From a virus (Duplodnaviria; Caudoviricetes): DNA of 64,000 nt. The notes under the pieces were generated by a model. It made no database searches, was not told the origin of the DNA, and saw only the letters and a list, made by a program, of their open reading frames with translations. The stretch is taken from the IMG/VR virus record IMGVR_UViG_3300037454_000194, positions 6,212 through 70,211 of that record, one strand, 5' to 3'. Below are positions 9,033-59,951 of this stretch, piece after piece. Each line of letters begins with the position of its first letter. Within the stretch, counting starts at the first letter, position 1. The translations under genes were made by a program, and so were the position numbers.

Positions 9033-9050
9033 TTTTCAACCCGTATAATG
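9033..9050 (+). promoter_or_regulatory. Phage promoter motif TTTTCA-N5-TATAAT-G
   Basis: TTTTCA ACCCG TATAAT G, then hairpin GGTCA/TGACT. Confidence 0.8.
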
Positions 9051-9088
9051 GTCATATGTTGACTAATTTACTTGAAAGGAGGTGAATT

Positions 9089-9406
9089 GTGATGGAACTT
9101 TTTCATAAGGGTTTGGATTTCGACAGACTCGCGGACGAGCAGGCTGCTCGAATCTATGAAAAGCTCGATGAGACGGAAGTTGGTACGAAAGAGTACCGAG
9201 AGCTCCAGAACCAGTTGGGGGCCTTTGAGATCATGAAAGAAAAAAGAAGAAACGGAACGATCACAAAGGCACAATGGGTGATGTGGGTACTCGATTTCTT
9301 GAAAAGTACCACAACTCTCGGGCTTATTCTGACAGCAGATTTCTTGCTGCCTCGAATTATCGAGAAACTCAAACTCAATGAAGGCATCACTAGATTGTTT
9401 AAGTAA
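9089..9406 (+). CDS. Hypothetical membrane protein (cassette gene)
   Basis: Own promoter at 9033, RBS AAAGGAGG, C-terminal hydrophobic helix, terminator at 9422. Confidence 0.7.
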   Translation: MMELFHKGLDFDRLADEQAARIYEKLDETEVGTKEYRELQNQLGAFEIMKEKRRNGTITKAQWVMWVLDFLKSTTTLGLILTADFLLPRIIEKLKLNEGITRLFK

Positions 9407-9421
9407 CTTAGTGATATGGCC

Positions 9422-9460
9422 AAAGGAGCGATAGGATCTATTCAGGTCCTATCCTCTTTT
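9422..9460 (+). terminator. Cassette 3' hairpin
   Basis: ATAGGA/TCCTAT stem with outer AAAGGAG/CCTCTTT, followed by T-run. Confidence 0.65.
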
Positions 9461-9492
9461 GCAACAAACTTTAATTTAGGAGGTACAAAGGA

Positions 9493-9786
9493 ATGTTTTT
9501 CACTCACAAGAAGCACACAGAAACCCTCAAACCAGAGGAGTCCACAATCAATCAAGAAAGGGAGGAACCCGAAATGAATGTAAACGAGCCACTCGACAGA
9601 ACGAAGCTTCATACCGATATGTTCGAGGCTATTGCAAGCATCGTCATCGAACACGAGACCGTCATGAATTCTCCAATAGACGGTTCTCCTATCGGTGTGG
9701 TGCGTACTGAGGATGTCCTGAATTCTATCACAGAGTACTTTGGCATAGACATCGGTAAGACAAAGTTTTCTGAGTATAGAAAGTAA
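9493..9786 (+). CDS. Hypothetical protein
   Basis: RBS AGGAGG; 97 aa. Confidence 0.65.
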   Translation: MFFTHKKHTETLKPEESTINQEREEPEMNVNEPLDRTKLHTDMFEAIASIVIEHETVMNSPIDGSPIGVVRTEDVLNSITEYFGIDIGKTKFSEYRK

Positions 9787-9800
9787 AAGGAGAACTCAAA

Positions 9801-10022
9801 ATGAACAAGAAAGGTCCATGCCAAGGTTGCCCCGATCGAACCGCTGAACCCAATTGTCACGTCACTTGTTACGATCGGTACATACCATGGGCTCAGAAGG
9901 TCAAAGAAGAAAGGCTACGAGAGAGCCGCATGAGAAAACAAGAGTTAGACGCATGTCGTGTCCGTAATCAGCGTAATGTAACCGGGCATGCCATAGCAAA
10001 GAAGGTGAAAAATCGTGGTTGA
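9801..10022 (+). CDS. Small Cys-rich hypothetical protein (CxGCxxR..CHxxC)
   Basis: RBS AAGGAG; PCQGCPDRTAEPNCHVTC. Confidence 0.7.
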   Translation: MNKKGPCQGCPDRTAEPNCHVTCYDRYIPWAQKVKEERLRESRMRKQELDACRVRNQRNVTGHAIAKKVKNRG

Positions 10023-10308
10023 ATTCGATGCAGAGTATCTTATCATCATTATATTTGGGATTGGTCTTGGAATACCGTTTCTTGTGACGTGTTTTCACAT
10101 CATAAGAAGGCTCAGAGAACTCCACAAAGAGCATAACAAGTATGAAGGAGAGCTATTTGTCTCAGATGGTGGAGAGATTTTCTCAGAATTCCACATCCCA
10201 ATAGGAGAACTAACATCTAAGGACTATATTTTACTAAAAGTCACAAAAGTCGAGCCTAAAGGAGGTAATACTAATGGCAACGTATCAGCAGAGACTTACA
10301 AAACCTGA
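10015..10308 (+). CDS. Single-TM protein upstream of lysin, possible holin or lysis accessory
   Basis: One N-terminal TM segment; overlaps the lysin start. Confidence 0.4.
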   Translation: MVEFDAEYLIIIIFGIGLGIPFLVTCFHIIRRLRELHKEHNKYEGELFVSDGGEIFSEFHIPIGELTSKDYILLKVTKVEPKGGNTNGNVSAETYKT

Positions 10309-11077
10309 AAACGGTAACAAATTCTTCAATACCGTAGGAAAAGGCGGATGGTCTACAGCTATTGTAGGAAGTCCAAAAGACGCTGGATGCGATGTTCTGT
10401 CAAACTGTGTAGGCTATGCGTTTGGTAGATTCAACGAAATCGCATACCAGCTTCTCGGCGAAGAAGGAGTCAAGAAGCTCTTTAAGGAAAACGGAGGAAC
10501 TCTTAAAAACCTCAACGCCAACTCCAGAATGCCCCTCCTCCAGCCCCTTAACGCAGAAAACTTTTACGACGTAGCCCTCACCCAGGGTCTCACAGTATCT
10601 CAGACACCTTCTCTCGGAGCTTGCATGGTCTGGCAGAATGGCAACACAAGAGACTACAAAGATGGATCGGGGCATGTGGCAATTGTCGAAGAGATCATCT
10701 CGGTCGATTGCATCAAATCCTCTGAGTCTGGCTATGGATGCATAAATCCCTTCTTGACTCAGCTTAGATATAAGAGCAACGGTAACTGGGGTGCTGGAAG
10801 TGGGTATAAATTCCTTGGCTTTATTAAGAATCCTGCTGTAGACTCTCCAAAAGATCCGTATCCGATGCCTACGAGAACTCTTAAGGAAGGTATGACCGGA
10901 GATGATGTCAAATGGGTGCAGTGGAAACTAAAAAACCTCTGCTATCTTAACGACTCGATCGATGGTTGGTTCGGCATTCATACTTGCGAAGCGGTTCTTT
11001 ACTTCCAGCTTAAGAATGGTCTCTCTTGTGATGGCATTGTCGGAAATGCTACAAGAGAGTTGCTTAGTAAGGTGTAA
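10274..11077 (+). CDS. Endolysin: CHAP amidase plus C-terminal peptidoglycan-binding domain
   Basis: SNCVGYA catalytic Cys, GHVAIVE catalytic His, SESGY; C-terminal TLKEGMTGDDVKWVQ..IDGWFG..FQLKNGLSCDGIVG. Confidence 0.9.
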   Translation: MATYQQRLTKPENGNKFFNTVGKGGWSTAIVGSPKDAGCDVLSNCVGYAFGRFNEIAYQLLGEEGVKKLFKENGGTLKNLNANSRMPLLQPLNAENFYDVALTQGLTVSQTPSLGACMVWQNGNTRDYKDGSGHVAIVEEIISVDCIKSSESGYGCINPFLTQLRYKSNGNWGAGSGYKFLGFIKNPAVDSPKDPYPMPTRTLKEGMTGDDVKWVQWKLKNLCYLNDSIDGWFGIHTCEAVLYFQLKNGLSCDGIVGNATRELLSKV

Positions 11078-11079
11078 AA

Positions 11080-11097
11080 TTTTCATTTTCTATAATG
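11080..11097 (+). promoter_or_regulatory. Phage promoter motif
   Basis: TTTTCA TTTTC TATAAT G, then hairpin GACTAGC/GCTGGTC. Confidence 0.8.
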
Positions 11098-11139
11098 GAC
11101 TAGCATGTTGTATGGCTGGTCGATTTCATTGTAGAAAGG

Positions 11140-11505
11140 ATGAAAACTATGGAAACTATGGAAAACAAGAAGAAGCTTTCCACAAAGGAGAAACTGAAAA
11201 GCGCAAAAACAAAAGCCGTTCAGTTCTACAAAGATCACGAAGGCGTGATATGGTTGATAGGAGGAACCGCTGTTGGAATTCTCTCACTTATCGGGGCTGT
11301 AAAGCTTGATAAGCACATGAGAGAGATTCAGGAGCAGTTTATATCCCATGATAACTATACGCCCGTACGGCTCTTTGATAAGAACGGGAAAGAGTTCAGG
11401 CTCTTTCAGTGGGACTCGGGAAATTGTGGAGACCCTATGGATGCTATGTTCTTTCCAGACATCCAGGTAGGATGGAGCAAGGAGATCGATTGGGATAAAC
11501 TGTAA
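11140..11505 (+). CDS. Hypothetical membrane-anchored protein (cassette gene)
   Basis: Promoter 11080, basic amphipathic N-terminus plus one TM, terminator 11511. Confidence 0.7.
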   Translation: MKTMETMENKKKLSTKEKLKSAKTKAVQFYKDHEGVIWLIGGTAVGILSLIGAVKLDKHMREIQEQFISHDNYTPVRLFDKNGKEFRLFQWDSGNCGDPMDAMFFPDIQVGWSKEIDWDKL

Positions 11506-11510
11506 ATCCA

Positions 11511-11560
11511 AAAGAGCTCTTATGCCCTGTGCGTTATTTACACAGGGCATAATCTCTTTC
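11511..11560 (+). terminator. Cassette 3' hairpin
   Basis: TTATGCCCTGTG/CACAGGGCATAA. Confidence 0.75.
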
Positions 11561-11598
11561 TATAGTTTTTCGAAACAAACTTTAAAGGAGGTAATTAT

Positions 11599-11973
11599 GT
11601 GACAGAGACAACATTTGATTCGGTCGAGACAAAGATTCTCGCACTCGGACATGCTCTTGGTAAAGACGACTTGTATATACTTGAGTTAATTCAAAATGAG
11701 GGCCTTTATGGGGCATTTGAGAGGCTCCTGTCTATCAGACGCTCTTTTTATAAGGAAGACGGAACGTGGATGCGAGATTTTATAGACCTTCGTGCGGCTG
11801 TGGAGGCGGTAGACATCTGCAAATACAATCCAAAAGAGCAGAAGAAAGCCTATAACTCACTTGTTATATTTATTAAGGCAAGAAATTTCTCACCATGGGA
11901 GCACGTGGTACACGACAAGGCTTTCGGAAATCTTATATTATTCGAGGAGGACGAAAATGACGATACGAAGTGA
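11599..11973 (+). CDS. Hypothetical protein
   Basis: RBS AAAGGAGG, GTG start. Confidence 0.65.
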   Translation: MTETTFDSVETKILALGHALGKDDLYILELIQNEGLYGAFERLLSIRRSFYKEDGTWMRDFIDLRAAVEAVDICKYNPKEQKKAYNSLVIFIKARNFSPWEHVVHDKAFGNLILFEEDENDDTK

Positions 11974-12247: not shown

Positions 12248-12250
12248 AAA

Positions 12251-12268
12251 TTTTCAACTCGTATAATG
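12251..12268 (+). promoter_or_regulatory. Phage promoter motif
   Basis: TTTTCA ACTCG TATAAT G, then ACCG/CGGT hairpin. Confidence 0.8.
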
Positions 12269-12310
12269 GACCGTGTAAAAAGCGGTACTACTTTATAAGG
12301 AGGTCTTTAT

Positions 12311-12697: not shown

Positions 12698-12713
12698 AGT
12701 AAGGAGGTGACAT

Positions 12714-12746: not shown

Positions 12747-12753
12747 AAATTTT

Positions 12754-13034: not shown

Positions 13035-13052
13035 TTTTCAATCGCTATAACG
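13035..13052 (+). promoter_or_regulatory. Phage promoter motif (variant)
   Basis: TTTTCA ATCGC TATAAC G. Confidence 0.7.
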
Positions 13053-13160: not shown

Positions 13161-14090
13161 ATGAAAGGAATCAACGTAAATGGGTCCACGGTAAAGTCTC
13201 TTCTTAAGAACGGGGCAAAGTTCGTGGAAAAGCAGGCACCAGCAATTTGCGCAGGTATTGCAGTTGCTGGTCTGATTGGAGCGGTCGTATCTGCTGTAAA
13301 GGCCGGTCCTGAACTGAAGGAGGCACTGGAAGAAGCGCATATCAGAAAGAACGAGGAGGCTCTCAAGATGCGCAGAGAAGGTAGTGATGATATTCCTATC
13401 GAAGAACTCAACCTCAAGGAAAAAGCTCCTATCTACGCCCGGCATCTGTGGAAGACAACAGTTTATGGTGTAATTTCCATCGTATTTATTGCCGCATCGG
13501 TATGCTTTGGTCATAAGCAAATCAAGACTCTTACGGTACTTGCAGCGGCCGCAGAGTCAAACCTTATCAACTTCGAGGGCGCAGTCAAAGACGTCGTTGG
13601 TGATAAGAAGTTTGACGAGATTAAGCGCAAGGTACTTGACAACGCGCCCGACCCGCAGGAAGAATTCATCATCGAGACTGGACAGGGTGATACCCTTTGC
13701 TATGAACCGTGGTTCCGTACGTACTTCCGTATGAGCATTGAGGCGGCGAAGAGCATTGCTAAAGACTGTGAGCTCTCGTATCACAAGGGCGGAGAACTTA
13801 CCTTTGATGAAATCTACGAGCGGTACCATCTTAGCAAGGCACCCAATATTGCAGAAATCATGCGCCGCTTTAACGAAGGTAGAGAAGAAGAGGACCTTCT
13901 TAGCGACCATGGTTACTTCTCAGATCCAGAGGGTGAATTCAACTATCCGCCGTCCTTTGAACCGTATAGCAAGGAAGTGCTCCTTAACGGAAAGGAAGAA
14001 ACTTGCTATGTCGTAGCGTTCAACAGACCTAAGTCTCGCTGGATGTACGAGCACGAAAGTGAGAAGTTCTTTCGTCGGAAGAATCGCTGA
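13161..14090 (+). CDS. Conserved phage protein with N-terminal TM (DUF6353-like), paralog of 18530
   Basis: FVEKQAPAICAGIAVAGLIGAVVSAVKA start and YARHLWKT/ISIVFIAASVCFGHK segment parallel to the 18530 ORF. Confidence 0.65.
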   Translation: MKGINVNGSTVKSLLKNGAKFVEKQAPAICAGIAVAGLIGAVVSAVKAGPELKEALEEAHIRKNEEALKMRREGSDDIPIEELNLKEKAPIYARHLWKTTVYGVISIVFIAASVCFGHKQIKTLTVLAAAAESNLINFEGAVKDVVGDKKFDEIKRKVLDNAPDPQEEFIIETGQGDTLCYEPWFRTYFRMSIEAAKSIAKDCELSYHKGGELTFDEIYERYHLSKAPNIAEIMRRFNEGREEEDLLSDHGYFSDPEGEFNYPPSFEPYSKEVLLNGKEETCYVVAFNRPKSRWMYEHESEKFFRRKNR

Positions 14091-15433: not shown

Positions 15434-15451
15434 ATTTCAAGTCCTATAATG
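15434..15451 (+). promoter_or_regulatory. Phage promoter motif
   Basis: ATTTCA AGTCC TATAAT G, then ACTCG/CGGGT hairpin. Confidence 0.75.
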
Positions 15452-15824: not shown

Positions 15825-16739
15825 ATGGGTAAACCTAGAAAGGAAGTAGCTCTAATCGACATGATGATCTCCATCCTCGATAGAGTAAAGAACACGCTTG
15901 AGCTCATCAAAGAAGACAAGATGAGCGTCAAAGAAGCTTGCAGACGTAATGATATTTCATATGCTGCCGTACGCCGTATCCTCTTTGCGACAAACTGGGA
16001 GGAGCTTGAGGACGAAACGGAATACGAAAACTTCAAGAAGAAATTCTCAGAGACCATTCCCCTCTATCATTGGACTGAGATTCTATTTTGTGATGTATTC
16101 GCGCTCCCTCGTAACCCTGATTCCATTACCAAAATGCCTCCTGATGTACGAGAGACTGTTGAAAAGGCAGTCCATAGTCTTACAGAACGCGAGGAAAAGG
16201 TTATCAGACTCTTCTACGAGGACAACATGACCAAGGAAGAGGTCGCTGCTGAGATTGGTAGAAGCTACGAGAGAGTGAGACAGATTAAGGCAAAGGCTAT
16301 GAGGAAGCTCAAGCACCCCTCACGCATGGGCTATACTGTTTTTGGAGACGGTTACTACTGCTCCAAGAGAAAAGCCTACGATGATGTATACAACGACACG
16401 GTTTTGCAGGCTCGTAACGATGAAGCAAACAAGCTCAGAATCGTTGTTGAGGAGCGAAAGAAGCAGATTCAAGTAATTGACTCCATGTCTCTCCCTAGAG
16501 GATTCTTTGGTACAGAAGAAATCTCTGAACTTAATCTCTCTGTAAGAAGCTTCAACTGTCTTTGGAGAGCGGGTATCCATACCATCGAGGACCTTCGTAA
16601 TACAACATACGATGAGCTCAGCAAGGTGCGCAATCTCGGTAAGAAATCCCTTGATGAGATTCTAGATGTCATGGAGAGAGAAGGAATTGAGCTCAACAGT
16701 GTAAAACTTGATAAGAATGATAAGGAGAATTCAAAATGA
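15825..16739 (+). CDS. Sigma70 region-4 HTH fused to an RNA polymerase alpha C-terminal domain
   Basis: [45 protein letters not shown] (sigma4); [40 protein letters not shown] (alpha-CTD). Confidence 0.9.
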
Positions 16740-18389: not shown

Positions 18390-18407
18390 TTTTCAATCCT
18401 TATAGTG
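18390..18407 (+). promoter_or_regulatory. Phage promoter motif (variant)
   Basis: TTTTCA ATCCT TATAGT G. Confidence 0.7.
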
Positions 18408-18486
18408 GAGAGGTACGGATGGTGTAACTGGTAACACACTCGCTGGAACGCGAGAGATTGTTGGTTCGAGTCCAACTCCTATCTCT
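18407..18486 (+). ncRNA. tRNA-like cloverleaf with 6-nt anticodon loop and extended, bulged acceptor stem, forming a 5' leader
   Basis: D arm GTGT/ACAC, CTCGC-TGGAAC-GCGAG, T arm GTTGG-TTCGAGT-CCAAC; no CCA. Confidence 0.7.
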
Positions 18487-18529
18487 TTTCACCTTATTAT
18501 ATTTTTAACCCATGAAAGGAGTAATAAGT

Positions 18530-19546
18530 ATGGGTATCAAGGAATCTTTTGTACATGGTATGAAGTCTCTCGGTAGAGGCATCAAGGCTAAGAGTCCTAC
18601 AATCCTCGTGGTTGCGGGTACTATTGGTCTTGTTGGTGCAGGTGTCGCAGCTGTCATCAAGACCAAGGACGGCCTTCAGGAAGTTCTGGACCAGCACAAG
18701 AAGGATGTCGAGGCACTGAAGGACATCAAGGAGGGCAGAGTGATTCTCAGTGACTGCACAACAGAAGAGTTTGTTGAGAAGCGCTATAAGAAGTATCTCA
18801 CAGCTCAGTATTTTACAACGGTAGCGAGACTAGCGAAGTTCTATGCTCTCCCGCTTCTGATGGCAGCACTGTCTATCACTGCTATCATGACAGGTCACGG
18901 TATTCTTAATAAGTGGCATCTGACTGCGGTTGCAGAGTGTTACTCTGTTAAGGAGACACTCGATGAGTACCGTAAGAGAGTTGCGGGCGTTGTTGGTGAC
19001 GAGAAGGAAAAAGATATTTTCTTTGATAGAGCCAAAGAGATTATCACTGAGACTGTCACCGACGAAAACGGAGAGGAGAAGCAGGTCTCTAGAGAGGTGA
19101 CAACCAGTACTTGCCCGAGAACAAGCTATACCTATATTGTTTCGGAAGAGACAATGTGCGACTGCATCGATTTCAGATGGACGGCAGACGTTGAGAACAG
19201 ACTCCATATTCTTCTGAACAACGCAAATGAGTACTTCACCAGACATGACAGAGCCTGCACGCTCAATGACTTCATGGTACACCACTGGAAGGACGAATAT
19301 CTGATGGCTCATCCTGAAGTCTTTACAGATGGCTGGATGAAACACAACCCGCTTGTCGATGAGACTCTTCCGGACATCAATCCGATTGAGATGGAAGTTC
19401 ACAAGATCTCTGGTCCTGGCGAGCCGCTTAAGTACTCTGTAACCTTCAACGCACAGGGTAATATTGTTAATGCTGTTGCAGCTGCTAATGCCAAGAAGAG
19501 AGCGGCGAAGAAGCTTAACAAAAAAGTCAAAGCAAGAGTTATCTAA
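18530..19546 (+). CDS. Conserved phage protein with N-terminal TM (DUF6353-like), paralog of 13161
   Basis: IKAKSPTILVVAGTIGLVGAGVAAVIKT; LAKFYALPLLMAALSITAIMTGHGIL..YRKRVAGVVGDEKEKDI. Confidence 0.7.
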   Translation: MGIKESFVHGMKSLGRGIKAKSPTILVVAGTIGLVGAGVAAVIKTKDGLQEVLDQHKKDVEALKDIKEGRVILSDCTTEEFVEKRYKKYLTAQYFTTVARLAKFYALPLLMAALSITAIMTGHGILNKWHLTAVAECYSVKETLDEYRKRVAGVVGDEKEKDIFFDRAKEIITETVTDENGEEKQVSREVTTSTCPRTSYTYIVSEETMCDCIDFRWTADVENRLHILLNNANEYFTRHDRACTLNDFMVHHWKDEYLMAHPEVFTDGWMKHNPLVDETLPDINPIEMEVHKISGPGEPLKYSVTFNAQGNIVNAVAAANAKKRAAKKLNKKVKARVI

Positions 19547-21904: not shown

Positions 21905-21922
21905 TTTTCAGTTTCTATAATG
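21905..21922 (+). promoter_or_regulatory. Phage promoter motif
   Basis: TTTTCA GTTTC TATAAT G. Confidence 0.8.
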
Positions 21923-24283: not shown

Positions 24284-24301
24284 TTTTCAAGTCATATAAT
24301 G
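24284..24301 (+). promoter_or_regulatory. Phage promoter motif
   Basis: TTTTCA AGTCA TATAAT G, then ACTCGG/CCGGGT hairpin. Confidence 0.8.
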
Positions 24302-24711: not shown

Positions 24712-24888
24712 ATGAAAGTACAATTCATGAGATATAGTCTCGTTGATGGTAAGTATGTAAAGCTTGGTAAGGTAAGAGACATGACACAGGAGTCTATCGA
24801 ACTCAAACTGCAGGAGTACTCTGAGAAGAATCCTTACTCGCATTACTACGTAGTCTATCCTGAATCACAAAAATTTCAACGCGTATAA
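24712..24888 (+). CDS. 58-aa hypothetical protein (not in ORF track); its stop is the TAA of the next promoter's TATAAT
   Basis: RBS AAAGGAG; MKVQFMRYSLVDGKYVKLGK..SQKFQRV. Confidence 0.65.
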   Translation: MKVQFMRYSLVDGKYVKLGKVRDMTQESIELKLQEYSEKNPYSHYYVVYPESQKFQRV

Positions 24889-24890
24889 TG
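24873..24890 (+). promoter_or_regulatory. Phage promoter motif
   Basis: ATTTCA ACGCG TATAAT G. Confidence 0.75.
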
Positions 24891-24995: not shown

Positions 24996-25013
24996 TTTTC
25001 AACGCCTCTAATG
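24996..25013 (+). promoter_or_regulatory. Phage promoter motif (variant)
   Basis: TTTTCA ACGCC TCTAAT G, then RBS directly. Confidence 0.7.
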
Positions 25014-25851: not shown

Positions 25852-25926
25852 GCCCTAGTACCCTCAATCGGTTAGAGGATCGGTCTTATAAACCGGAAGT
25901 TCTGGGTTCGAGTCCCAGCTAGGGTA
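25852..25926 (+). tRNA. tRNA-Ile(UAU)
   Basis: Acceptor GCCCTAG/CTAGGGT, D arm, anticodon stem TCGGT/ACCGG with loop CT-TAT-AA, T arm CTGGG-TTCGAGT-CCCAG; no encoded CCA. Confidence 0.9.
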
Positions 25927-25947: not shown

Positions 25948-25965
25948 TTTTCAACTCGTATAATG
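25948..25965 (+). promoter_or_regulatory. Phage promoter motif
   Basis: TTTTCA ACTCG TATAAT G, then GNRA hairpin. Confidence 0.8.
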
Positions 25966-26409: not shown

Positions 26410-26427
26410 TTTTCAACCCTTATAATG
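26410..26427 (+). promoter_or_regulatory. Phage promoter motif
   Basis: TTTTCA ACCCT TATAAT G, then hairpin. Confidence 0.8.
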
Positions 26428-26859: not shown

Positions 26860-26877
26860 TTTTCAGCGACTATAATG
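26860..26877 (+). promoter_or_regulatory. Phage promoter motif
   Basis: TTTTCA GCGAC TATAAT G, then GAGGA/TCCTC. Confidence 0.8.
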
Positions 26878-27224: not shown

Positions 27225-27242
27225 TTTTCAATCTCTATAATG
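27225..27242 (+). promoter_or_regulatory. Phage promoter motif
   Basis: TTTTCA ATCTC TATAAT G, then CGAG-GAAA-CTCG. Confidence 0.8.
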
Positions 27243-28497: not shown

Positions 28498-28515
28498 TTT
28501 TCAACCCGTATAATG
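28498..28515 (+). promoter_or_regulatory. Phage promoter motif
   Basis: TTTTCA ACCCG TATAAT G, then GNRA hairpin. Confidence 0.8.
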
Positions 28516-37654: not shown

Positions 37655-37672
37655 CTTTCAATCTCTATAATG
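37655..37672 (+). promoter_or_regulatory. Phage promoter motif
   Basis: CTTTCA ATCTC TATAAT G, then hairpin. Confidence 0.75.
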
Positions 37673-39920: not shown

Positions 39921-39938
39921 TTTTCAGCTCCTATAATG
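39921..39938 (+). promoter_or_regulatory. Phage promoter motif
   Basis: TTTTCA GCTCC TATAAT G, then GGTCGA/TCGGCC. Confidence 0.8.
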
Positions 39939-40075: not shown

Positions 40076-40093
40076 CTTTCAACCCCTATAATG
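40076..40093 (+). promoter_or_regulatory. Phage promoter motif
   Basis: CTTTCA ACCCC TATAAT G, then GGTCATAT/ATGTGACT. Confidence 0.75.
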
Positions 40094-40832: not shown

Positions 40833-40850
40833 TTTTCAATCTCTATAATG
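40833..40850 (+). promoter_or_regulatory. Phage promoter motif
   Basis: TTTTCA ATCTC TATAAT G, then GGTCGAG/CTTGACC. Confidence 0.8.
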
Positions 40851-46562: not shown

Positions 46563-46642
46563 GCCCAGGTGGTGGAATTGGCAGACACGTTGGATTTAGG
46601 TTCCAATGAGAAATCATGCGGGTTCGAGTCCCGTCCTGGGTA
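46563..46642 (+). tRNA. tRNA-Leu(UAG)
   Basis: Acceptor GCCCAGG/CCTGGGT, D arm GTGGAATTGGCAGACAC, anticodon stem TTGGA/TCCAA with loop TT-TAG-GT, variable arm, T arm GCGGG-TTCGAGT-CCCGT. Confidence 0.92.
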
Positions 46643-46671: not shown

Positions 46672-46689
46672 TTTTCAATCCCTATAATG
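46672..46689 (+). promoter_or_regulatory. Phage promoter motif
   Basis: TTTTCA ATCCC TATAAT G. Confidence 0.8.
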
Positions 46690-47892: not shown

Positions 47893-47910
47893 CTTTCAGC
47901 CTCTATAATG
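47893..47910 (+). promoter_or_regulatory. Phage promoter motif
   Basis: CTTTCA GCCTC TATAAT G, then GGAA-ACTA-TTCC. Confidence 0.75.
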
Positions 47911-48212: not shown

Positions 48213-48230
48213 TTTTCAGCTCCTCTAATG
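48213..48230 (+). promoter_or_regulatory. Phage promoter motif (variant)
   Basis: TTTTCA GCTCC TCTAAT G, then RBS directly. Confidence 0.7.
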
Positions 48231-48583: not shown

Positions 48584-48601
48584 TTTTCAGCCTCTATAAT
48601 G
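48584..48601 (+). promoter_or_regulatory. Phage promoter motif
   Basis: TTTTCA GCCTC TATAAT G, then GGTC-GAAA-GGCC. Confidence 0.8.
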
Positions 48602-51250: not shown

Positions 51251-54202
51251 ATGCTTGATTTTTTAAAATTTGGGTATGAATTTATTAATCGTGAGAGCAG
51301 AATCACTGTACAGTACGCGTCCTCGACAAGAGTCAAAGATTTGATGATACGAGGTGGGTGCTTTTATGCGGCTTGGGATTTTGAGAATGAAGAGTGGACG
51401 CAAAACATTTGCAGAGTATATGAGCTCATTGATGCGTCGATTCAGGAATTTGTGAAAAGTCAAATGGAAACTCTCAAGATGGATGAGTACGAATACAGAC
51501 AAAGATATAAAATCCCGGTTGCAACACTCAGTGGAAGTAAGATACCAGAAAACTTTATCAAGTATACAAAACAAGTACAGGATAATTTTAAGCCGCTCAA
51601 TACCAAAGTAGTCTTCAAGAGTGATAAGGCGGCAAGAGAATTATATTCTTCGAAAAGACTCCCTTACGACCCTATTGAGATGGAGACTCCTGCATATGAT
51701 AGACTGATGTCCGTATTATATTCTGACAGTGAGAGACAAAAGATCGAGTGGCTTATAGGAGCTGGACTTTGCAGAGACAATGGAAAGATTCAGAAGTTCG
51801 GAGTTTTGTACGGTGAACCTGGAACTGGTAAGGGTACAGTACTTGATATTATCATGATGCTCTTTGAAGGCTATACCTCGGCGTTCGAAGCTGATGCGCT
51901 TGGGCATAAAAGCGACTCCTTTGCCCTTGAGCCGTTTAAGACAAATCCTGTTATTGCTATTCAAACTGATGGCAATCTTTCTAGAATAGAGAGTAACGCG
52001 AGACTTAACACGTTAATATCTCACGAGACAATGACCGTCAATGAGAAGTTTAAGAATAAATATACTGCGAAATTTGACACTATTCTTCTCATGGGCACTA
52101 ATAATCCAGTTCGTATAACAGATGCAAAATCGGGTCTTTTAAGAAGACTTATCGATATAGAACCAACTGGCAACACAATTCCGAAAGACGAGTACGATGA
52201 GATTAAAGAAAAGCTTCCTTTCGAGATCTCAGGTATTGCTTATCGTTGCATGGAATTATATTCTAACAACAAGAAGCTTTATAACGCCTACAGACCGATG
52301 ACAATGATGTCAAAGACTAACGAGTTCTATGACTTCGTACTCGAGTACTACGACCAGTTCTGTGCTGAGGATTATATTTTGCTGTCGACCGCTTGGACCT
52401 GGTATAAGAAATACGTTGAGGACTCAAACGCTTACACAAAGCTTTCTCGTAGAGCGTTCGCATCAGAGCTCTGCGCATATTTTGAAGAAGGACAGCACGA
52501 TGAGTGGTATGTAGATGAGGATGGGTCGCGCAAGCATCTCTCTTCCGTATATCGTGGTTTCAGACGTGAAAGGTTCAAGAACGTTAGGAATCGCGGAATC
52601 GGAGAAGTTAAGGTTGTGAAGAGTAAGAAGAGTTCTTCAGGCGCTGGAGAAGGTGGTTCGTCGGATGTAGCGGAGGAGAGCAAAGCGGATATTCTGAAGA
52701 ATCTTCCTAAATGGCTCAAGCTCAAAGACGTAAGCGGCATGAGTGATGACGATCTGATGGAGAATCCTCTCAATGTATATTTGAAAGATGCAAAAGCTCA
52801 GTATGCTGTTCCTACAGATACCGGTGGGTCAAAGCCGAAGAATAGCTGGGACTACACAAGGTCGAAGCTTAACGCGATCAACACTTTAAGAGAACATTAT
52901 ATTCTGACGCAGAGTATTGACCCGAGACTTATATGCATTGACTTTGACCTTAAGGACCCTGAAACGGGAGAGAAGAGTCTTGAGAGAAATCTTCTTGCCG
53001 CTGCAAAGTTCCCTAAAACCTATGCAGAGACTTCTAAATCTGGAAAGGGTCTTCATCTCTATTATATTTACGATGGAAATGTTGATGACCTTTCGATGCT
53101 TTATGATACAGAGATTGAGATTAAGGTCTTTACTGGAAAGTCTGCTTTAAGAAGAATGCTGTATCTTTGTAATACTGAGGAGATTAGTCACATTAATAGC
53201 GGTCTCCCATTGAAGGAAGTGAAGAAGATGATAAATTGGGAAGGTGTTCAAAATGAGAAGCACCTTAGAGCTCTTATAGAAAAAGGACTTAAGAAGCAAG
53301 TATTCCCCAACACAAAGCCGTCTATAGATTATATTTCCCATTGTCTCGAAGAAGCTTATAACAGTGGAGTGTCATATGACGTTACAGACATGAGACAAAA
53401 GGTTTTGAATATGGCTTATGCTGCTACCAATCAATCTGAGTATTGTGTCGAAGCTGTTTTAAAAATGAAGTTTAATAGCCCAGATAAAGAAAACGTAGAG
53501 GACGAAGAGCTTACCGAAGAACGAGAATCCGTATATTCTGAGAAAAAGATTGCTTTTTATGATATAGAGATTTTTCCTAATTTAGCTGTCGTTTGCTATA
53601 AAGTTGAAGGCGGAGTTGTTGGTAACGCTGGAAAAGACGAAGTTGTAACGCTTATTAACCCAACCGCTAATGAGATATCAGAACTGGTAGACACATACAA
53701 CCTTATCGGATTTAACAATTTTGCTTATGATGATCGATTACTTTATGCTATGATCCTCGGATATTCTAACGAAAGACTTTTCCAAATATCGCAAGCCATA
53801 ATTGTTCATGGAGAGAGAGTTTTTCAAAACAACCATATTGGTTATGCGGATATTCGTGATTTTGCTTCGAACAAACAAAGTCTTAAAAAGTATGAAATAG
53901 AAATCGGAAACGCGCAACCAGAATTGGATCTGCAACATCAGGAACTGGGGCTTCCGTGGGAAGAACCCGTTGACAAAAGTAAATGGGATCTTGTCGCTAG
54001 TTATTGTGCGAATGACGTTGTCGCCACAGAAGCAACTTTTTATTATTTAAAAGCCGATTGGACCGCAAGAAAGATGCTTGCTGAGATTGCTGATATGCCT
54101 GTATCGACATCTACAAATAACCTAACCGCTCAGATTATATTTGGAAATGTTCGCAATCCAAAACTCATGTATACAAATCTTAAAACTGGTGAGAGGAGCT
54201 AA
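51251..54202 (+). CDS. Fusion: SF3/D5-like helicase, primase-polymerase (AEP) domain and 3'-5' exonuclease domain
   Basis: Walker A GEPGTGKGT; CIDFDLKD and ETSKSGKGLHLYY (prim-pol); FYDIEIFPN, IGFNNFAYDD and YCANDV exonuclease motifs. Confidence 0.85.
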   Translation: MLDFLKFGYEFINRESRITVQYASSTRVKDLMIRGGCFYAAWDFENEEWTQNICRVYELIDASIQEFVKSQMETLKMDEYEYRQRYKIPVATLSGSKIPENFIKYTKQVQDNFKPLNTKVVFKSDKAARELYSSKRLPYDPIEMETPAYDRLMSVLYSDSERQKIEWLIGAGLCRDNGKIQKFGVLYGEPGTGKGTVLDIIMMLFEGYTSAFEADALGHKSDSFALEPFKTNPVIAIQTDGNLSRIESNARLNTLISHETMTVNEKFKNKYTAKFDTILLMGTNNPVRITDAKSGLLRRLIDIEPTGNTIPKDEYDEIKEKLPFEISGIAYRCMELYSNNKKLYNAYRPMTMMSKTNEFYDFVLEYYDQFCAEDYILLSTAWTWYKKYVEDSNAYTKLSRRAFASELCAYFEEGQHDEWYVDEDGSRKHLSSVYRGFRRERFKNVRNRGIGEVKVVKSKKSSSGAGEGGSSDVAEESKADILKNLPKWLKLKDVSGMSDDDLMENPLNVYLKDAKAQYAVPTDTGGSKPKNSWDYTRSKLNAINTLREHYILTQSIDPRLICIDFDLKDPETGEKSLERNLLAAAKFPKTYAETSKSGKGLHLYYIYDGNVDDLSMLYDTEIEIKVFTGKSALRRMLYLCNTEEISHINSGLPLKEVKKMINWEGVQNEKHLRALIEKGLKKQVFPNTKPSIDYISHCLEEAYNSGVSYDVTDMRQKVLNMAYAATNQSEYCVEAVLKMKFNSPDKENVEDEELTEERESVYSEKKIAFYDIEIFPNLAVVCYKVEGGVVGNAGKDEVVTLINPTANEISELVDTYNLIGFNNFAYDDRLLYAMILGYSNERLFQISQAIIVHGERVFQNNHIGYADIRDFASNKQSLKKYEIEIGNAQPELDLQHQELGLPWEEPVDKSKWDLVASYCANDVVATEATFYYLKADWTARKMLAEIADMPVSTSTNNLTAQIIFGNVRNPKLMYTNLKTGERS

Positions 54203-54207
54203 CCACT

Positions 54208-55464
54208 ATGGAGGGAATCATTCAAGCTTTTCCTGAGTACGAAATGATAACGGACGAAACTGGAAAACGCTGGATTGCTAATATGTATAAGGGGATTGAC
54301 GTTGGACGCGGAGGGTACGTATATTCTGTTCCAGGAATTTATAGGAACGTAGCTTTGTGCGACGTTGCGTCCATGCATCCACATTCCATCATCGCCATGA
54401 ACTATTTTGGTGAATACACAAAAAACTATGCCGACTTGGTAAATGCTAGAGTAGCAATCAAGCATAGAGACTTTGATACACTGCGTACATTGCTAGATGG
54501 AAAATTAGAAAAATACACACATGACGAGGAAATATTAGCCACACTAGATAAGGTGCTCAAATATCCCATAAATGCAACGTACGGAGAATCTGCCGCTAAG
54601 CATACCAATCGATTTCGTGATGAACGCAACATTAACAACATAGTTGCGCTTCGCGGTGCTTTGTTTATGGTAGACCTTAAAGAAGCCGTTGAAAAAGAAG
54701 GATATAAAGTCTGCCATATAAAAACAGATTCGATAAAAATACCGGATAGTGACGAGTATATTGTAGATTTTGTTCAAAAGTTTGCTGTTAAGTATGGATA
54801 TACAATGGAACACGAGGCAACATACGATAGAATTTGTCTTGTTAATAAATCAACGTATATCGCTAAGTATGACGCTAAAGGAATTCGCAATAAAGGCGGA
54901 AAACATGCTAATGAATGGACAGCAACCGGAGCAGAATTCCAACATCCGTATATTTTTAAAACACTTTTTAGTCACGAACCGATTTTGTTCGCAGACTACT
55001 GTGAGACAAAGAGTGTAAAAGGTGACGATGATATTTATCTAGATATGAACAAAGATCTAGTTCGTGATCTAGAAAAAGATGCTAACGATATTCGAAGTAA
55101 GATTCTTGAATGGCCTAAAGGCGTTCCGGGTATTATGGATATTAAGAGGAAATTAAAAGCCATAGAAAACGAGATTGAGTCAATACACAGTTTGAAGTTT
55201 GTAGGAAAATGTGGACAGTTTACTCCTGTAGATGATGCCGTTTCCGGAGGAGTTCTTATAAGATCATTAAAAGATTCCAAGACAGGAACCGTTAAGTATC
55301 AATCTGTTTCCGGATCAATTGGATATAGGTGGCTCGAGTCATATTATATTAAGAAAAACGGACTTGAAGATCATATAGATATGCGATACTTTAGAAAACT
55401 TGTAGATGATGCTTGCGGAACAATTTCTAAGTTTGGAGACGTTGATGAATTCATCAATGGGTAA
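54208..55464 (+). CDS. Family B-like DNA polymerase, polymerase domain only
   Basis: GGYVYSVPG, LCDVASMHPHS (motif A), LKYPINATYG (motif B), HIKTDSIK (motif C); RBS GAGGAG. Confidence 0.85.
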   Translation: MEGIIQAFPEYEMITDETGKRWIANMYKGIDVGRGGYVYSVPGIYRNVALCDVASMHPHSIIAMNYFGEYTKNYADLVNARVAIKHRDFDTLRTLLDGKLEKYTHDEEILATLDKVLKYPINATYGESAAKHTNRFRDERNINNIVALRGALFMVDLKEAVEKEGYKVCHIKTDSIKIPDSDEYIVDFVQKFAVKYGYTMEHEATYDRICLVNKSTYIAKYDAKGIRNKGGKHANEWTATGAEFQHPYIFKTLFSHEPILFADYCETKSVKGDDDIYLDMNKDLVRDLEKDANDIRSKILEWPKGVPGIMDIKRKLKAIENEIESIHSLKFVGKCGQFTPVDDAVSGGVLIRSLKDSKTGTVKYQSVSGSIGYRWLESYYIKKNGLEDHIDMRYFRKLVDDACGTISKFGDVDEFING

Positions 55465-56877: not shown

Positions 56878-56885
56878 GTTCATTA

Positions 56886-56903
56886 TTTTCAGCTCCTATA
56901 ATG
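56886..56903 (+). promoter_or_regulatory. Phage promoter motif
   Basis: TTTTCA GCTCC TATAAT G, then GCCT-GAAG-AGGC. Confidence 0.8.
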
Positions 56904-56943
56904 CCTGAAGAGGCGACAGTATATTTATAGGAGGTGAATCGAA

Positions 56944-57165: not shown

Positions 57166-57169
57166 CGGC

Positions 57170-57212
57170 ATAGGGGTTATGGGATATATTCTCGTAACCC
57201 CTATAACTTTTT
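57170..57212 (+). terminator. Cassette 3' hairpin
   Basis: TAGGGGTTATGGGA/TCTCGTAACCCCTA. Confidence 0.75.
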
Positions 57213-57217
57213 CAATT

Positions 57218-57235
57218 TTTTCAATCCCTATAATG
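57218..57235 (+). promoter_or_regulatory. Phage promoter motif
   Basis: TTTTCA ATCCC TATAAT G, then GAAGG/CCTTC. Confidence 0.8.
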
Positions 57236-57292
57236 AAGGAAATAACCCTTCGTCCGATATATATTTTATGTGAATTTTGAGGAGGTATCATT

Positions 57293-57667
57293 ATGAGCAT
57301 TATGGGTAAAGTTGCATCGATTATGGTAAAGGCGATGGCGGAAGCGACAGTGGCGCGCGGAGTCGAAAGCGTTGCTACGGCAGCGATCAACCACACTGGC
57401 CTGCTTAAGGGCGCAACCCAGACAACAAAGACTGTTGTCAAGGTTGGCACTTACGTAGGATCGGCGGCGGTAGGATCGGCTGTAGTCAACAAGCTGGTTG
57501 ACAAAGCGAATGCTGACGGCTATCCGATCACCGGAAAGGCCAAGAACATCGAGATCAGAACTTACACACACGATGGAGTGCTGGTAGGCACCCCCGAACA
57601 CAAGAAGAACAAATCGGATTCTAAAGGAAGCACCGAAGTCATTGAGGTGGAGGTAATGGGCACCTGA
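57293..57667 (+). CDS. Hypothetical amphipathic protein (cassette gene)
   Basis: Promoter 57218, RBS GAGGAGG. Confidence 0.75.
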   Translation: MSIMGKVASIMVKAMAEATVARGVESVATAAINHTGLLKGATQTTKTVVKVGTYVGSAAVGSAVVNKLVDKANADGYPITGKAKNIEIRTYTHDGVLVGTPEHKKNKSDSKGSTEVIEVEVMGT

Positions 57668-57725
57668 ATTATCAGGGCCCATAGGCCTTATTCAGCTATT
57701 ATATTTTTTTTGTCGGAGGCCAACC

Positions 57726-59000
57726 ATGTCTGTTACACTGTACCAGCATCAAATGGATGCAATTAAGAAGATGAAGAATGGCTCGATACTCGTAGGTGGT
57801 GTCGGATCTGGGAAATCAAGGACCTCTTTAGGATATTTTTATAAAGAACATGGTGGGGGGTTTTCCCCCGTTACTGAGAATGTAGAAAATGAGGAGAGAA
57901 TCATAGGATATTCTATGACAAAAGGAATGAATGAAAAGCCGAGAACGCTTATCATCATTACTACAGCAAAGAAACGGGATTCAATGGAATGGGAAGATGA
58001 GCTTTTAACGTATAACATGTCAACCAACATGGAGCTTAATAAATATGGAAACAGAATTATAGTGGATAGTTGGAACAACATAGGAAAATACTCAAAGGCT
58101 CATAATTGTTTCTTCATATTTGATGAACAGAGAGTTGGTGGTACAGGAAAGTGGGCAAAGACGTTCATTAAGATCGCTAGAGAAAACAAATGGATATTAC
58201 TATCTGCGACGCCTGGAGATACATGGTCAGATTATGCACCAGTATTCATAGCGAACGGTTTTTACAAGAATTTCACAGAGTTTAGAAATAGACACTGCGT
58301 ATATTCTAGATTCGCAAAGTATCCAAAGATTGATCATTATGTAGAATGTGACATCTTAGAGGATCATAGATCAGAAGTTCTAGTATATATGAAGTTCGAA
58401 AGAAAAACTGTTGCTCATAAGAATTATATCCACGTAGAGTATCCTAAAGACGACTACGAAACTGTGTCTAAGAAACGTTGGGATATTTACAAGAACGAGC
58501 CTTGTCAAGAAATAGCTACAGTTTGTGCGGTTCTTCGCAAAGTCGTGAATTCTGATGGGTCCCGCATTGAGAAGATTCATGAGCTTCTTCAAGAGCATCC
58601 TAAAGCTATTATATTCTATAACTACGATTACGAACTTGAGATACTGAGAAAATATTGTGAAGATACAAATTACGTTTATGCCGAATGGAACGGGCATAAG
58701 CATGAGGAAGTACCAACTGGAGATGAGTGGTTGTATCTCGTTCAGTATAGAGCTGGTGCTGAAGGATGGAATTGTATAACAACAGATACAATTATATTCT
58801 ATTCCTTGACGTATTCATACAAGGATTCTGTGCAAGCAGCTGGAAGAATTGACAGGATGAATACACCGTTTGTGGATCTTCATTACTTTTACCTCATCTC
58901 TTCTTCTAAGATTGACCTTGCTATAAGTAAGTGTCTTCGTGGTAAGAAGAACTTTAACGAAAAGAGTTTCATTGAAAACGAAAGGAACGTATATTCATGA
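57726..59000 (+). CDS. Superfamily 2 (SNF2/DEAD-like) helicase
   Basis: GVGSGKSRT, FIFDEQR, LSATPGD, QYRAGAEGWN, QAAGRIDR. Confidence 0.9.
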   Translation: MSVTLYQHQMDAIKKMKNGSILVGGVGSGKSRTSLGYFYKEHGGGFSPVTENVENEERIIGYSMTKGMNEKPRTLIIITTAKKRDSMEWEDELLTYNMSTNMELNKYGNRIIVDSWNNIGKYSKAHNCFFIFDEQRVGGTGKWAKTFIKIARENKWILLSATPGDTWSDYAPVFIANGFYKNFTEFRNRHCVYSRFAKYPKIDHYVECDILEDHRSEVLVYMKFERKTVAHKNYIHVEYPKDDYETVSKKRWDIYKNEPCQEIATVCAVLRKVVNSDGSRIEKIHELLQEHPKAIIFYNYDYELEILRKYCEDTNYVYAEWNGHKHEEVPTGDEWLYLVQYRAGAEGWNCITTDTIIFYSLTYSYKDSVQAAGRIDRMNTPFVDLHYFYLISSSKIDLAISKCLRGKKNFNEKSFIENERNVYS

Positions 59001-59188
59001 ACAGAAAGAATGGAAGACCGCTTGAGAACAATAAGCGTGTCAAAATCGTAGAAACTGGAGAAGTCTATGGCAATTATCTGGAAGCGACAAAAGCCATTGA
59101 CGGAAATCGATCTTGCGTATATTTGTGTCTCAAAGGAGACCGGAAACATCATAAAGGTTATAGTTTTGTTTATGAGGAGGAAACATGA
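58997..59188 (+). CDS. Stand-alone NUMOD1-like HTH protein
   Basis: IVETGEVYGNYLEATKAIDGNRSCVYLCLKGDRKHHKGYSF. Confidence 0.75.
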   Translation: MNRKNGRPLENNKRVKIVETGEVYGNYLEATKAIDGNRSCVYLCLKGDRKHHKGYSFVYEEET

Positions 59189-59886
59189 TGGAAGAAAGTT
59201 GGAAATTGCTTGAAGAGTATCCTAACTATGAGGTGTCGACTTTTGGACGAGTAAGAAGAGTCTATAATGACGGAAGCTTTGAGATGGTGGAGCCTTATAG
59301 TGACTTTGAAGTTATTAAGGTTAAGCTAGACAACTACAGAGGTGTCGAAGAGGTTGCGCTAGCATGGCTTGTCCTAGGTACGTTTGATCCTTATCGAGGA
59401 CCTGGCGGATGGTCTCCAATTGTATATTTAGATGAGGACCCCTGGAACTGTTCGCTTAGTAATATGCGATGGAAAAAAAAGAACATGAGAAAAACGTACG
59501 AGAGGCAAGAAAAAGAATATATGGAACACCATAAAGTATATTGCTATGAAAACAAAAAGACATATGACACGGCAAACGATGCATCAAATGATCTTGGTGT
59601 TGATAGAAGTTCAATTACAAAATGCTGTTTAGGTGTGTATTCTACAGCAGGAGGCTATACGTTTTCGTATGAAAGAAATAAAAACGAGGCAACAAGGGTT
59701 TCAAAAAATAGTAGGGGTAGAAAAGTATATTGTAAAAACATGATTGACGGTAGCATACAAATTTTTAATAATCAAAAAGAAGCTTGTGAATCTTTGAATT
59801 TGCCTTCTATTAAGAAGGTTCTTTCTGGCCATTGTAAACGAACTGGAAATTATATTCTTTCGTATTCGAAAGATGATATATTGTAA
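59185..59886 (+). CDS. NUMOD4/HNH-derived protein with a degenerate nuclease site plus NUMOD1 repeats
   Basis: LLEEYPNYEVSTFGRVR; ALAWLVLGTF and IVYLDEDPWNCSLSNMRW lack the usual His residues. Confidence 0.75.
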   Translation: MMEESWKLLEEYPNYEVSTFGRVRRVYNDGSFEMVEPYSDFEVIKVKLDNYRGVEEVALAWLVLGTFDPYRGPGGWSPIVYLDEDPWNCSLSNMRWKKKNMRKTYERQEKEYMEHHKVYCYENKKTYDTANDASNDLGVDRSSITKCCLGVYSTAGGYTFSYERNKNEATRVSKNSRGRKVYCKNMIDGSIQIFNNQKEACESLNLPSIKKVLSGHCKRTGNYILSYSKDDIL

Positions 59887-59933
59887 TGTCGGTAATCGTT
59901 TCGGGAACCTTTTAGCACACCCAAAGCACAGTA

Positions 59934-59951
59934 ATATCACAGCCTATAATG
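59934..59951 (+). promoter_or_regulatory. Phage promoter motif (variant) upstream of VRR-NUC, exonuclease and RNAP-like genes
   Basis: ATATCA CAGCC TATAAT G, then GGAT-GGACC/GGTCC-AATCC hairpin. Confidence 0.6.

Follow-up and report, generated by a model that had tools for sequence, protein, structure and literature searches.

The closest described systems are phage RNA polymerases made of a single chain. Thermus phage P23-45 has two, the virion enzyme gp96 and the non-virion enzyme gp64, which use promoter motifs (bioRxiv 10.1101/2022.12.01.518664). YonO of Bacillus phage SPbeta is a single-chain two-barrel DNA-dependent RNA polymerase of about 100 kDa that is needed for phage genes, and its promoter sequence and cofactor need were left open (PMC5467207). 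PHROG 4291 is the putative RNA polymerase of the 1706/FP_oengus/AM-AU-AW-BI-CC-DJ-EL supercluster (Koert et al., bioRxiv 10.1101/842583), also named 'Sisseviridae' (PMC9723715); the sections of the preprint available to us predict the enzyme and do not name its promoter. Lastly, the Gordonia cluster DJ phages Vardy and Conley have an intergenic motif of 50 bp and 43 bp (PMC9671010, PMC10868162). In print it is said to contain a sigma70 -10, is not linked to a phage polymerase, and is not followed across phyla.

We analyzed a window of 64,000 nucleotides from a phage of the 1706/Oengus/actinophage supercluster. It contains many copies of a motif, TTTTCA-N5-TATAAT-G. This motif probably serves as promoter for the single-chain two-barrel RNA polymerase that the phage itself encodes, with RNA starting at the G that follows the hexamer (+1, or one base to either side). 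Every computational test favored this reading and none gave a result that would contradict it; both the start site and the enzyme are what we infer from these tests. The original prediction likened the system to the multisubunit enzymes of phiKZ and AR9. The idea of a phage polymerase held, but the single-chain P23-45 gp96 and gp64 and YonO are closer analogues.

The polymerase and its relatives

The gene had been placed at 60885. A two-barrel polymerase is indeed predicted there, although the reading frame is open from a GTG at 60876, and 60885 is the ATG of the recorded 965-aa protein. The predicted DFDGD polymerase has helix-turn-helix (HTH) domains at both termini (Table 1). Residues D541, D543, D545, R494, K300 and K332 are invariant in 76 sequences, and K300 and K332 presumably have a catalytic role. 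The structure model (pLDDT 81) matches QDE-1/RDR2 and P23-45 gp64 (Foldseek E = 2e-9 to QDE-1 and 7e-6 to gp64, with a global TM of only about 0.3), and the modeled fold is the two-barrel fold common to QDE-1/RDR2 and cellular RNA polymerase. A sequence search of the PDB with the polymerase gave no match. A single-sequence search of GTDB contigs gave none either, whereas an alignment-based search did.

The enzyme is an orthologue of the PHROG 4291 polymerase. It matches the profile over its full length (952 bits), is 35-41% identical over the full length to about 250 phage records, and has the same HTH-DxDGD-HTH layout and the same helicase-exonuclease-polymerase gene order. The family is large, with at least 8000 candidates at E <= 1e-10 in a protein search. 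Its carriers include cultured phages with easy hosts, and in many records the protein is annotated only as an HTH protein. The polymerase prediction is not new and dates from 2021; the literature that we searched held no biochemical report on DNA-templated RNA synthesis by this family. Compared with other PHROG 4291 phages, this clade has larger genomes (86-98 kb in relatives) and a promoter without a CGCR box. The label Heliusvirales was considered and rejected; the Heliusvirales paper mentions no RNA polymerase, promoter or Oengus.

Like the P23-45 enzymes, this polymerase is a predicted single-chain two-barrel protein associated with a private multi-copy motif, and gp64 and gp62 are structural matches. 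However, P23-45 has two enzymes and two motifs, and its gp96 is fused to a tape measure protein, whereas this phage has a single HTH-flanked enzyme and a single class of motif, and identity is about 13%. Profile similarity to YonO is insignificant (hhalign probability 0.8%), which does not support membership of the YonO family in the strict sense. By analogy, we propose that PHROG 4291 polymerases may work like YonO.

Table 1. Positions of the motif copies, the polymerase gene and associated features in the window.
Feature	Position	Strand
Promoter copy, exact, + G; stem from +1	9033..9050	+
Promoter copy, exact	11080..11097	+
Promoter copy, exact	12251..12268	+
Promoter copy, TATAAC; then long stem leader, ~77 nt	13035..13052	+
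Promoter copy, ATTTCA	15434..15451	+
HTH + sigma70 region 4 + alpha-CTD protein; rival reader	15825..16739	+
Promoter copy, TATAGT	18390..18407	+
Degenerate tRNA-like leader; acceptor stem reaches back to +2	18407..18490	+
Promoter copy, exact; ~130-nt structured leader closed via pairing with +2..+8	21905..21922	+
Promoter copy, exact; stem from +1	24284..24301	+
Promoter copy, ATTTCA; stem from +1	24873..24890	+
Promoter copy, TCTAAT; Shine-Dalgarno right after G, ATG at +18	24996..25013	+
Promoter copy, exact	25948..25965	+
Promoter copy, exact; terminator-like hairpin immediately upstream	26410..26427	+
Promoter copy, exact	26860..26877	+
Promoter copy, exact	27225..27242	+
Promoter copy, exact	28498..28515	+
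Promoter copy, CTTTCA	37655..37672	+
Promoter copy, exact; stem from +1	39921..39938	+
Promoter copy, CTTTCA; stem from +1	40076..40093	+
Promoter copy, exact; stem from +1	40833..40850	+
Promoter copy, exact; directly after tRNA-Leu	46672..46689	+
Promoter copy, CTTTCA	47893..47910	+
Promoter copy, TCTAAT; Shine-Dalgarno right after G, ATG at +18	48213..48230	+
Promoter copy, exact; GAAA-tetraloop stem from +1; last before primase-polymerase genes	48584..48601	+
Promoter copy, exact; stem from +1	56886..56903	+
Promoter copy, exact; stem from +1	57218..57235	+
Promoter copy, ATATCA; heads exonuclease-polymerase operon; position kept in 119/136 related loci	59934..59951	+
Cas4/PD-(D/E)XK exonuclease; conserved neighbor in polymerase operon	60280..60879	+
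Single-chain two-barrel RNA polymerase (PHROG 4291), 965-968 aa; proposed motif reader	60876..63782	+
N-terminal L-x-H-x-G...SGRY motif, low-confidence tail; candidate packaging tag (inferred)	60924..60998	+
Two N-terminal HTH units, ~aa 56-133	61041..61274	+
Catalytic DFDGD loop, aa 541-545	62496..62510	+
C-terminal HTH, aa 935-968	63678..63779	+

A repeated putative start signal

One and the same short, putative start signal precedes 26 gene blocks of the phage. All 26 predicted positions hold the motif on the plus strand, with a 5-nt spacer and a G after the hexamer. TTTTCA-N5-TATAAT is exact in 16 of them; nine have one mismatch and the copy at 59934 has two. A 27th copy, with the hexamer CATAAT, lies upstream of the window at window position -3029. 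The exact sequence occurs 17 times in the window against 0.01 expected, and none of 100 shuffles reached 17. Scored with a weight matrix built from them, every site reaches at least 16 bits, and nothing else exceeds 9.6. As predicted, the copies are non-coding (none lies within the plus-strand reading frames taken as genes). A single promoter class does not account for early and late timing. The 17th exact match, at 5196-5212, is on the minus strand within a tail gene, is followed by C, and looks like chance.

The motif is a shortened form of a family element, CGCR-N3-WWW(A/T)CA-N5-nnTWAT-R, of which the CGCR box has been lost in the clade of this phage. The Vardy motif is the same element (TCGCA-N3-ATTACA-N5-TATAAT-G). 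The element could in principle be a site of RNA processing, or of recombination and cassette exchange, with 5' stems marking cleavage ends. The layout is cassette-like, several copies lie 3-9 nt past a stop codon, and several leaders are near-duplicates. We give this explanation hardly any weight, because the three boxes keep a fixed spacing while the spacers vary in sequence, the purine at +1 is invariant, the copies point strictly towards a Shine-Dalgarno site and ATG, terminator-like hairpins lie upstream of seven sites, and continuous identity is too little for recombination.

The hexamer and the start site

This clade has the TATAAT hexamer in common with sigma-A/sigma70 promoters. T-12, A-11 and T-7 are all present in 22 or 23 of the 26 copies, and the hexamer stays near TATAAT in this phage and its close relative G010 (exact in 35 of 57 sites). 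Such hexamers could be usable by host sigma-A too. Unlike sigma-A promoters, however, the sites have a second box 5 nt off and an inferred start adjoining the hexamer. They also lack a -35 (best TTGACA match 2.33 of 6 against 2.94 in shuffles) and a TG extended -10 (0 of 27), as the original prediction had noticed. Over 197 homologous sites, the -11 position is T in 111, A in 71, G in 10 and C in 5, and A is thus missing in 126. TAnnnT is absent from every nearby register in 112 of the 197, in 14 of 14 Oengus sites and in 4 of 4 G003 sites. The commonest hexamer is TTTTAT (86 of 197), so the -11A of sigma-A appears dispensable in relatives. TATAAT is not the conserved part of the family element, and its likeness to a -10 seems largely incidental. 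This also corrects the sigma70 -10 interpretation given in the literature.

A dual use of the motif in this clade is unlikely: it would be a phage polymerase promoter that keeps TATAAT so that host sigma-A can also fire it weakly (from about +7) until the phage enzyme takes effect. The branch of this phage, 1706 and the actinophages does strongly retain TATAAT with its -11A, and prophage-rich relatives have TTTTAT or TGTTAT at the polymerase-proximal site, as if avoiding host reading. But the same branch has CATAAT, TCTAAT, AATAAT and AGTAAT variants, there is no -35 or TG extension, Shine-Dalgarno sites in G010 and G001 would be lost from an RNA that began at +7, and a packaged enzyme would need no host priming.

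Structure at the 5' end argues for a start at the G. In this phage, stems pairing from +1 or +2 occur at 18 of 27 sites against 10.4 expected (z 2.8), and at 7 against 7.8 expected if the RNA began at +7; the excess is gone at +7 in G010 as well. Across both phages, +1 closes the stem in 25 of 57 sites. These stems have 24 different sequences, with all pair types at +2 to +4, and their pairing does not reach beyond -1. The tRNA-like leaders found in this phage and in Oengus, Vardy and Pepy6 begin to pair between +1 and +3. Among the sites of relatives, 12 have a GGAGG that starts at +1 to +3, and these Shine-Dalgarno sites would be deleted by a start at +7. Since both stems and whole Shine-Dalgarno sites begin at the G, the start is likely to be at about +1 and not +7. 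The structure predicted at or near the G is therefore borne out as an excess of stems, except that the copies at 24996 and 48213 have a Shine-Dalgarno site instead. The same stem test gave weak 5' stems, or none, for actinophages and 1706. When the spacer was included in the folding, its pairing with the Shine-Dalgarno site confounded the outcome, and tests without this confounder were used instead. Two other roles for the stems were rejected: template-hairpin recognition of the N4 type, since the stems are downstream, differ in sequence and do not occur in many relatives, and operators, in view of 24 different sequences with G-U pairs.

Host RNA polymerase might also read TATAAT if redirected by a phage factor binding TTTTCA, either the sigma4/alpha-CTD protein or the HTHs of the DFDGD protein acting as an activator. 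Appropriation of the host enzyme, as by MotA and AsiA of T4, is a known mechanism, and the HTH, sigma4 and alpha-CTD protein is common to this phage and G010, both without a CGCR box. We nevertheless consider redirection highly unlikely. Among the genomes tested, only these two have the protein: ten other motif-bearing genomes have no sigma4/alpha-CTD homologue, and 25 more have no alpha-CTD domain over the cut-off. This protein, offered as the alternative reader in the original prediction, cannot explain a family-wide motif, because the gene is absent from relatives that carry the array. In addition, sigma regions 2-3 would cover a box only 5 nt away from the hexamer, -11A is dispensable across the family, the stems and Shine-Dalgarno sites indicate +1, and the DFDGD protein has invariant catalytic residues.

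Distribution of the element and a model for its use

In the sequences compared, the arrays track the polymerase across two host phyla, Firmicutes and Actinobacteria, in phages of Lactococcus, Faecalibacterium, Rhodococcus, Arthrobacter, Gordonia and Streptomyces. Further polymerase-bearing genomes had 5-20 same-strand copies in 21 of 25 cases, and a scan for the CGC-box form found no array in the other four. Across 104 loci we counted 197 distinct sites, compared with 4 on the opposite strand. Of 136 loci, 119 have a copy no more than 2.5 kb upstream of the polymerase gene. A scan of five Clostridia genomes (17.9 Mb) gave 39 matches, of which 36 fell in tight same-strand clusters, mostly on polymerase-bearing prophage contigs; the remaining three compare with four control matches, leaving host chromosomes near background. 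The predicted co-occurrence was thus found, with arrays in polymerase-bearing phages and not in host chromosomes or unrelated contigs. The lone array without a detected polymerase is that of G010, a syntenic relative whose contig ends before the locus. A polymerase search in 46 motif-selected records, run without a positive control, was empty. The hexamer type changes only about once on the polymerase tree, which therefore gives no support for co-evolution of motif and enzyme, and the co-occurrence also reflects shared ancestry.

We postulate that the polymerase would use its own HTH domains to bind the W-rich CA box (at roughly -17 to -12), open the T-W-A-T adjoining +1, and make short cassette mRNAs, often with a 5'-terminal hairpin that could plausibly guard them from 5'-end decay. 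More speculatively, the enzyme may be packaged in the virion, and the promoter at 59934 might drive the polymerase gene and also, through the junction of the joined genome ends, the head genes, which would create a self-amplifying loop independent of host sigma-A.

The 1706 orthologue (orf75) is labelled 'structural protein' in GenBank EU081845, as is orf7, which has an H-x-G N-terminal motif in common with it. Because the orthologue is listed as a structural protein, the enzyme may travel in the virion. The label reportedly comes from virion mass spectrometry by Garneau in 2008. The N-terminal motif of the polymerase resembles the DUF7211 N-termini found on proteins of the virion module. The Pfam model (PF23847) picks up small proteins of this module, but the tested polymerase N-termini fall below it and share with DUF7211 only L-x-H-x-G...aromatic-G. 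With somewhat less than even confidence, we envisage a single-polypeptide two-barrel polymerase that is loaded into the head by a short N-terminal tag common to other internal proteins, reads a double-stranded multi-box promoter with its own HTHs, initiates right after a sigma-A look-alike hexamer without a sigma factor or host enzyme, and runs the whole phage program in hosts of two phyla. If true, this virion-packaged enzyme would be a portable, T7-like orthogonal expression system on the cellular RNA polymerase fold. A private promoter and polymerase could also explain how these phages were able to move between Firmicutes and Actinobacteria. A large two-barrel family gains a candidate promoter with a predicted start, making the enzyme directly assayable and pointing to a possible orthogonal expression tool for Gram-positive bacteria. 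The clade without the CGCR box offers a natural comparison for assigning each box to the HTH that reads it.

YonO has one late promoter, compared with 26 copies here, and the family pattern is absent from SPbeta. With an assumed offset, the YonO start maps right after ATTGCA-N5-TCGGAT, a place that falls inside the primer bracket in print. Two relatives do not conserve the C, and we regard this sequence as no more than a weak lead.

Copies of the motif and the enzyme encoded beside them

All 26 proposed copies of TTTTCA-N5-TATAAT-G are on the + strand, each having a spacer of 5 nt and a G immediately after the hexamer, and the observation is confirmed. Sixteen copies match perfectly, nine have one mismatch, and one (59934) has two. 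The exact motif occurs 17 times in the window versus 0.01 expected; the seventeenth match is antisense, within a tail gene, and has no G after the hexamer. With a matrix built from the sites, motif copies score at least 16 bits and the remainder of the 70.2-kb contig scores below 9.7 bits; the scan also finds a 27th, which lies upstream of the window. The copies are intergenic, often a few bases past a stop codon, and, as described in the original prediction, have neither a -35 element nor a TG extension. They are oriented toward an ATG and its Shine-Dalgarno site.

The siphovirus genome on this contig is linear and incomplete (CheckV completeness 92%); it begins in the tail module, and thus the head genes seem to be missing. 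The host is probably a Firmicute, judging from the strong GGAGG sites and the relatives among Clostridia prophages. The predicted RNA polymerase (RNAP) has homologues in about 250 phage records (Arthrobacter, Gordonia, Streptomyces, Lactococcus, Faecalibacterium, and others), and its DFDGD sequence is invariant across 76 homologues. The AlphaFold model (pLDDT 81) matches QDE-1, RDR2 and P23-45 gp64. These phages make up the supercluster of Koert et al. (10.1101/842583), who predicted that the protein is an RNA polymerase carrying HTH domains at its N- and C-termini.

Features of the phage genome and of SPbeta discussed here (window positions unless stated)
Feature	Position	Strand	Remark
Degenerate tRNA-like element	genome ~3200-3305 (window -3012)		no valid anticodon; right behind a promoter
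PHROG 2152 paralogue	13161-14090		also DUF6353; behind a promoter and long structured leader
HTH + sigma70 region 4 + RNAP alpha-CTD fusion	15825-16739		
Degenerate tRNA-like element	18407-18490		no valid anticodon; right behind a promoter
PHROG 2152 paralogue	18512-19546		behind a promoter and long structured leader
tRNA-Ile(UAU)	25852-25926		intact; ends 20-30 nt ahead of a promoter copy
tRNA-Leu(UAG)	46563-46642		intact; ends 20-30 nt ahead of a promoter copy
Primase-helicase-polymerase (PHROG 4210)	51251-55464		split into 983 + 418 aa
HNH gene	55486		follows the split gene
Predicted RNAP	60876-63782		PHROG 4291, 952 bits; DFDGD at residues 541-545
Candidate YonO promoter, SPbeta, upstream of yonK	L228:2969-2952	minus	ATTGCA-N5-TCGGAT

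Distribution of the motif and its possible readers

Unseeded word-pair discovery showed that ten other genomes share this architecture, with a strong signal in most and a weak one in two fragments, G003 and G004. Sites in Pepy6, Vardy, Circum, G002 and G004 read TCGCA/G-N3-WWWACA-N5-TATAAT-R, and the 14 copies in Oengus read ACGCG-N3-AAnnCA-N5-CTTTAT-G; the hexamer is TATA(A/G)T in Rima, TATAGT-A in 1706 and AGTAAT-G in G003. The upstream CGCR box has been lost in the clade of the window phage. G003 and G004 (L003, L018) have enzymes that are 83% identical and promoters with AGTAAT versus TATAAT, and they are a natural pair for finding specificity residues.

When 160 further loci were scored with only the upstream part of the motif, T-W-A-T-R emerged downstream on the coding strand, and no downstream signal emerged on the opposite strand. 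The scan yielded 197 distinct sites, compared with 4 on the control strand, and TTTTAT is the most common hexamer. The position of the sigma70 -11A is T in 111 of the 197, and 112 lack TAnnnT in every nearby register. Of 25 additional genomes with the RNAP gene, 21 have five to 20 same-strand copies. Five Clostridia genomes gave 39 matches; 36 of these are clustered, mostly on prophage contigs, and the other three equal the control rate. In 119 of 136 loci the RNAP operon is immediately preceded by a copy, the counterpart here being 59934. In Clostridia prophages (L148-L204), the copy that precedes the RNAP gene by 0.5-1.5 kb is TTTTAT or TGTTAT, and others in the same genome can be TATTAT or TATAAT; the RNAP-proximal sequence may prevent host sigma-A from reading the operon in lysogens.

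The expected association of the motif with the DFDGD gene was upheld. Among 45 viral contigs chosen solely for having one exact match, 44 have 1-4 scattered matches, and the only array is in G010, with 17. Because G010 is collinear with the window phage and its contig stops before the replication and RNAP genes, it is a relative and not a counter-example, and we used it (about 30 sites) as an independent replicate.

The original prediction also raised the possibility that host polymerase is redirected to the motif by the fusion protein that combines HTH, sigma4 and alpha-CTD domains. The gene coincides with the CGCR-less clade in both genomes checked, the window phage and G010. However, no homologue was found in the ten other motif-bearing genomes and no alpha-CTD domain scored over the cut-off in the 25 further genomes, so this protein cannot be the family-wide reader; it may modulate host RNA polymerase. 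We consider it likely, on computational grounds, that the motif is the promoter of the phage RNAP with its start at the G.

Position of the start site and a proposed mechanism

The stems previously noted at the G are present: 18 of 27 sites in the window phage pair from +1/+2 (10.4 expected) versus seven from +7 (7.8 expected). The corresponding numbers in G010 are 22 (14.7 expected) and 8 (7.0 expected). In the pooled set, the G closes a stem in 25 of 57 sites, with 24 different sequences and all Watson-Crick pair types at +2 to +4. Pairing could include the T at -1 in 19 of the 25 stems, the next base being mostly a purine regardless, and -2 in just five, which places the boundary at -1 or +1. 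In relatives, 12 sites have a GGAGG whose first base falls at +1 to +3, with ATG shortly after, and a sigma-type start at +7 would delete it. In four phages, pairing in tRNA-like leaders begins at +1 to +3. All three arguments point indirectly to a start near +1. The degenerate tRNA-like elements of the window phage have counterparts behind the motif in Oengus, Pepy6, Vardy and 1706; such elements may act as leaders or as decoys for anticodon nucleases.

We propose that the HTH domains of the polymerase bind the W-rich CA box, plus the CGCR box in most relatives, and that the enzyme would melt TWAT and initiate at the adjoining purine. Separate promoters would serve short cassettes; terminator-like hairpins lie upstream of seven copies. 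The 5'-terminal hairpins would probably shield mRNAs, a reading based on the properties of RppH and RNase J. The 1706 orthologue, orf75, is annotated as a structural protein (GenBank EU081845), and the RNAP N-terminus and head-module DUF7211 proteins have a common L-x-H-x-G motif; the enzyme may therefore be packaged in the virion and injected. 1706 orf7, a DUF7211 protein of the head module, is likewise listed as structural. The RNAP gene may head an operon running on into head genes, an order seen in a relative.

Known systems and other observations

The predicted enzyme would work like the P23-45 polymerases (10.1101/2022.12.01.518664) and YonO (PMC5467207), although YonO has no detectable sequence homology to it. 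Two Gordonia genome announcements (PMC9671010, PMC10868162) note the motif as a sigma70 -10. Among the papers covered by our literature search, none was found to tie the motif to the polymerase. What the window contributes is a variant lacking the CGCR box, the largest set of stems anchored at +1, and the rejection of the sigma4/alpha-CTD protein as the family-wide reader. In SPbeta, the YonO start, positioned by an assumed offset, may directly follow a sequence resembling the CA-N5-hexamer-purine layout, although its C varies in two relatives.

TATATT is very strongly biased to the + strand of the whole contig (132 versus 4 on -; 25 and 31 expected). It is densest at 15000-63000, rare in the structural module, and threefold enriched immediately ahead of Shine-Dalgarno sites (22/132 versus 5.6%). 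The bias recurs in Pepy6 (54/0), Vardy (36/2), G010 (61/4), G001 (163/27) and Rima (13/0); it was not found in 1706 or Circum. TATATT may act as a polar signal in DNA or RNA, for pausing, termination or processing. In most relatives the split PHROG 4210 gene is one uninterrupted ORF, about 1370-1395 aa long. One relative (L223) has its split at the same position, where an HNH gene lies between the parts; the split is possibly an intron remnant or a natural one.
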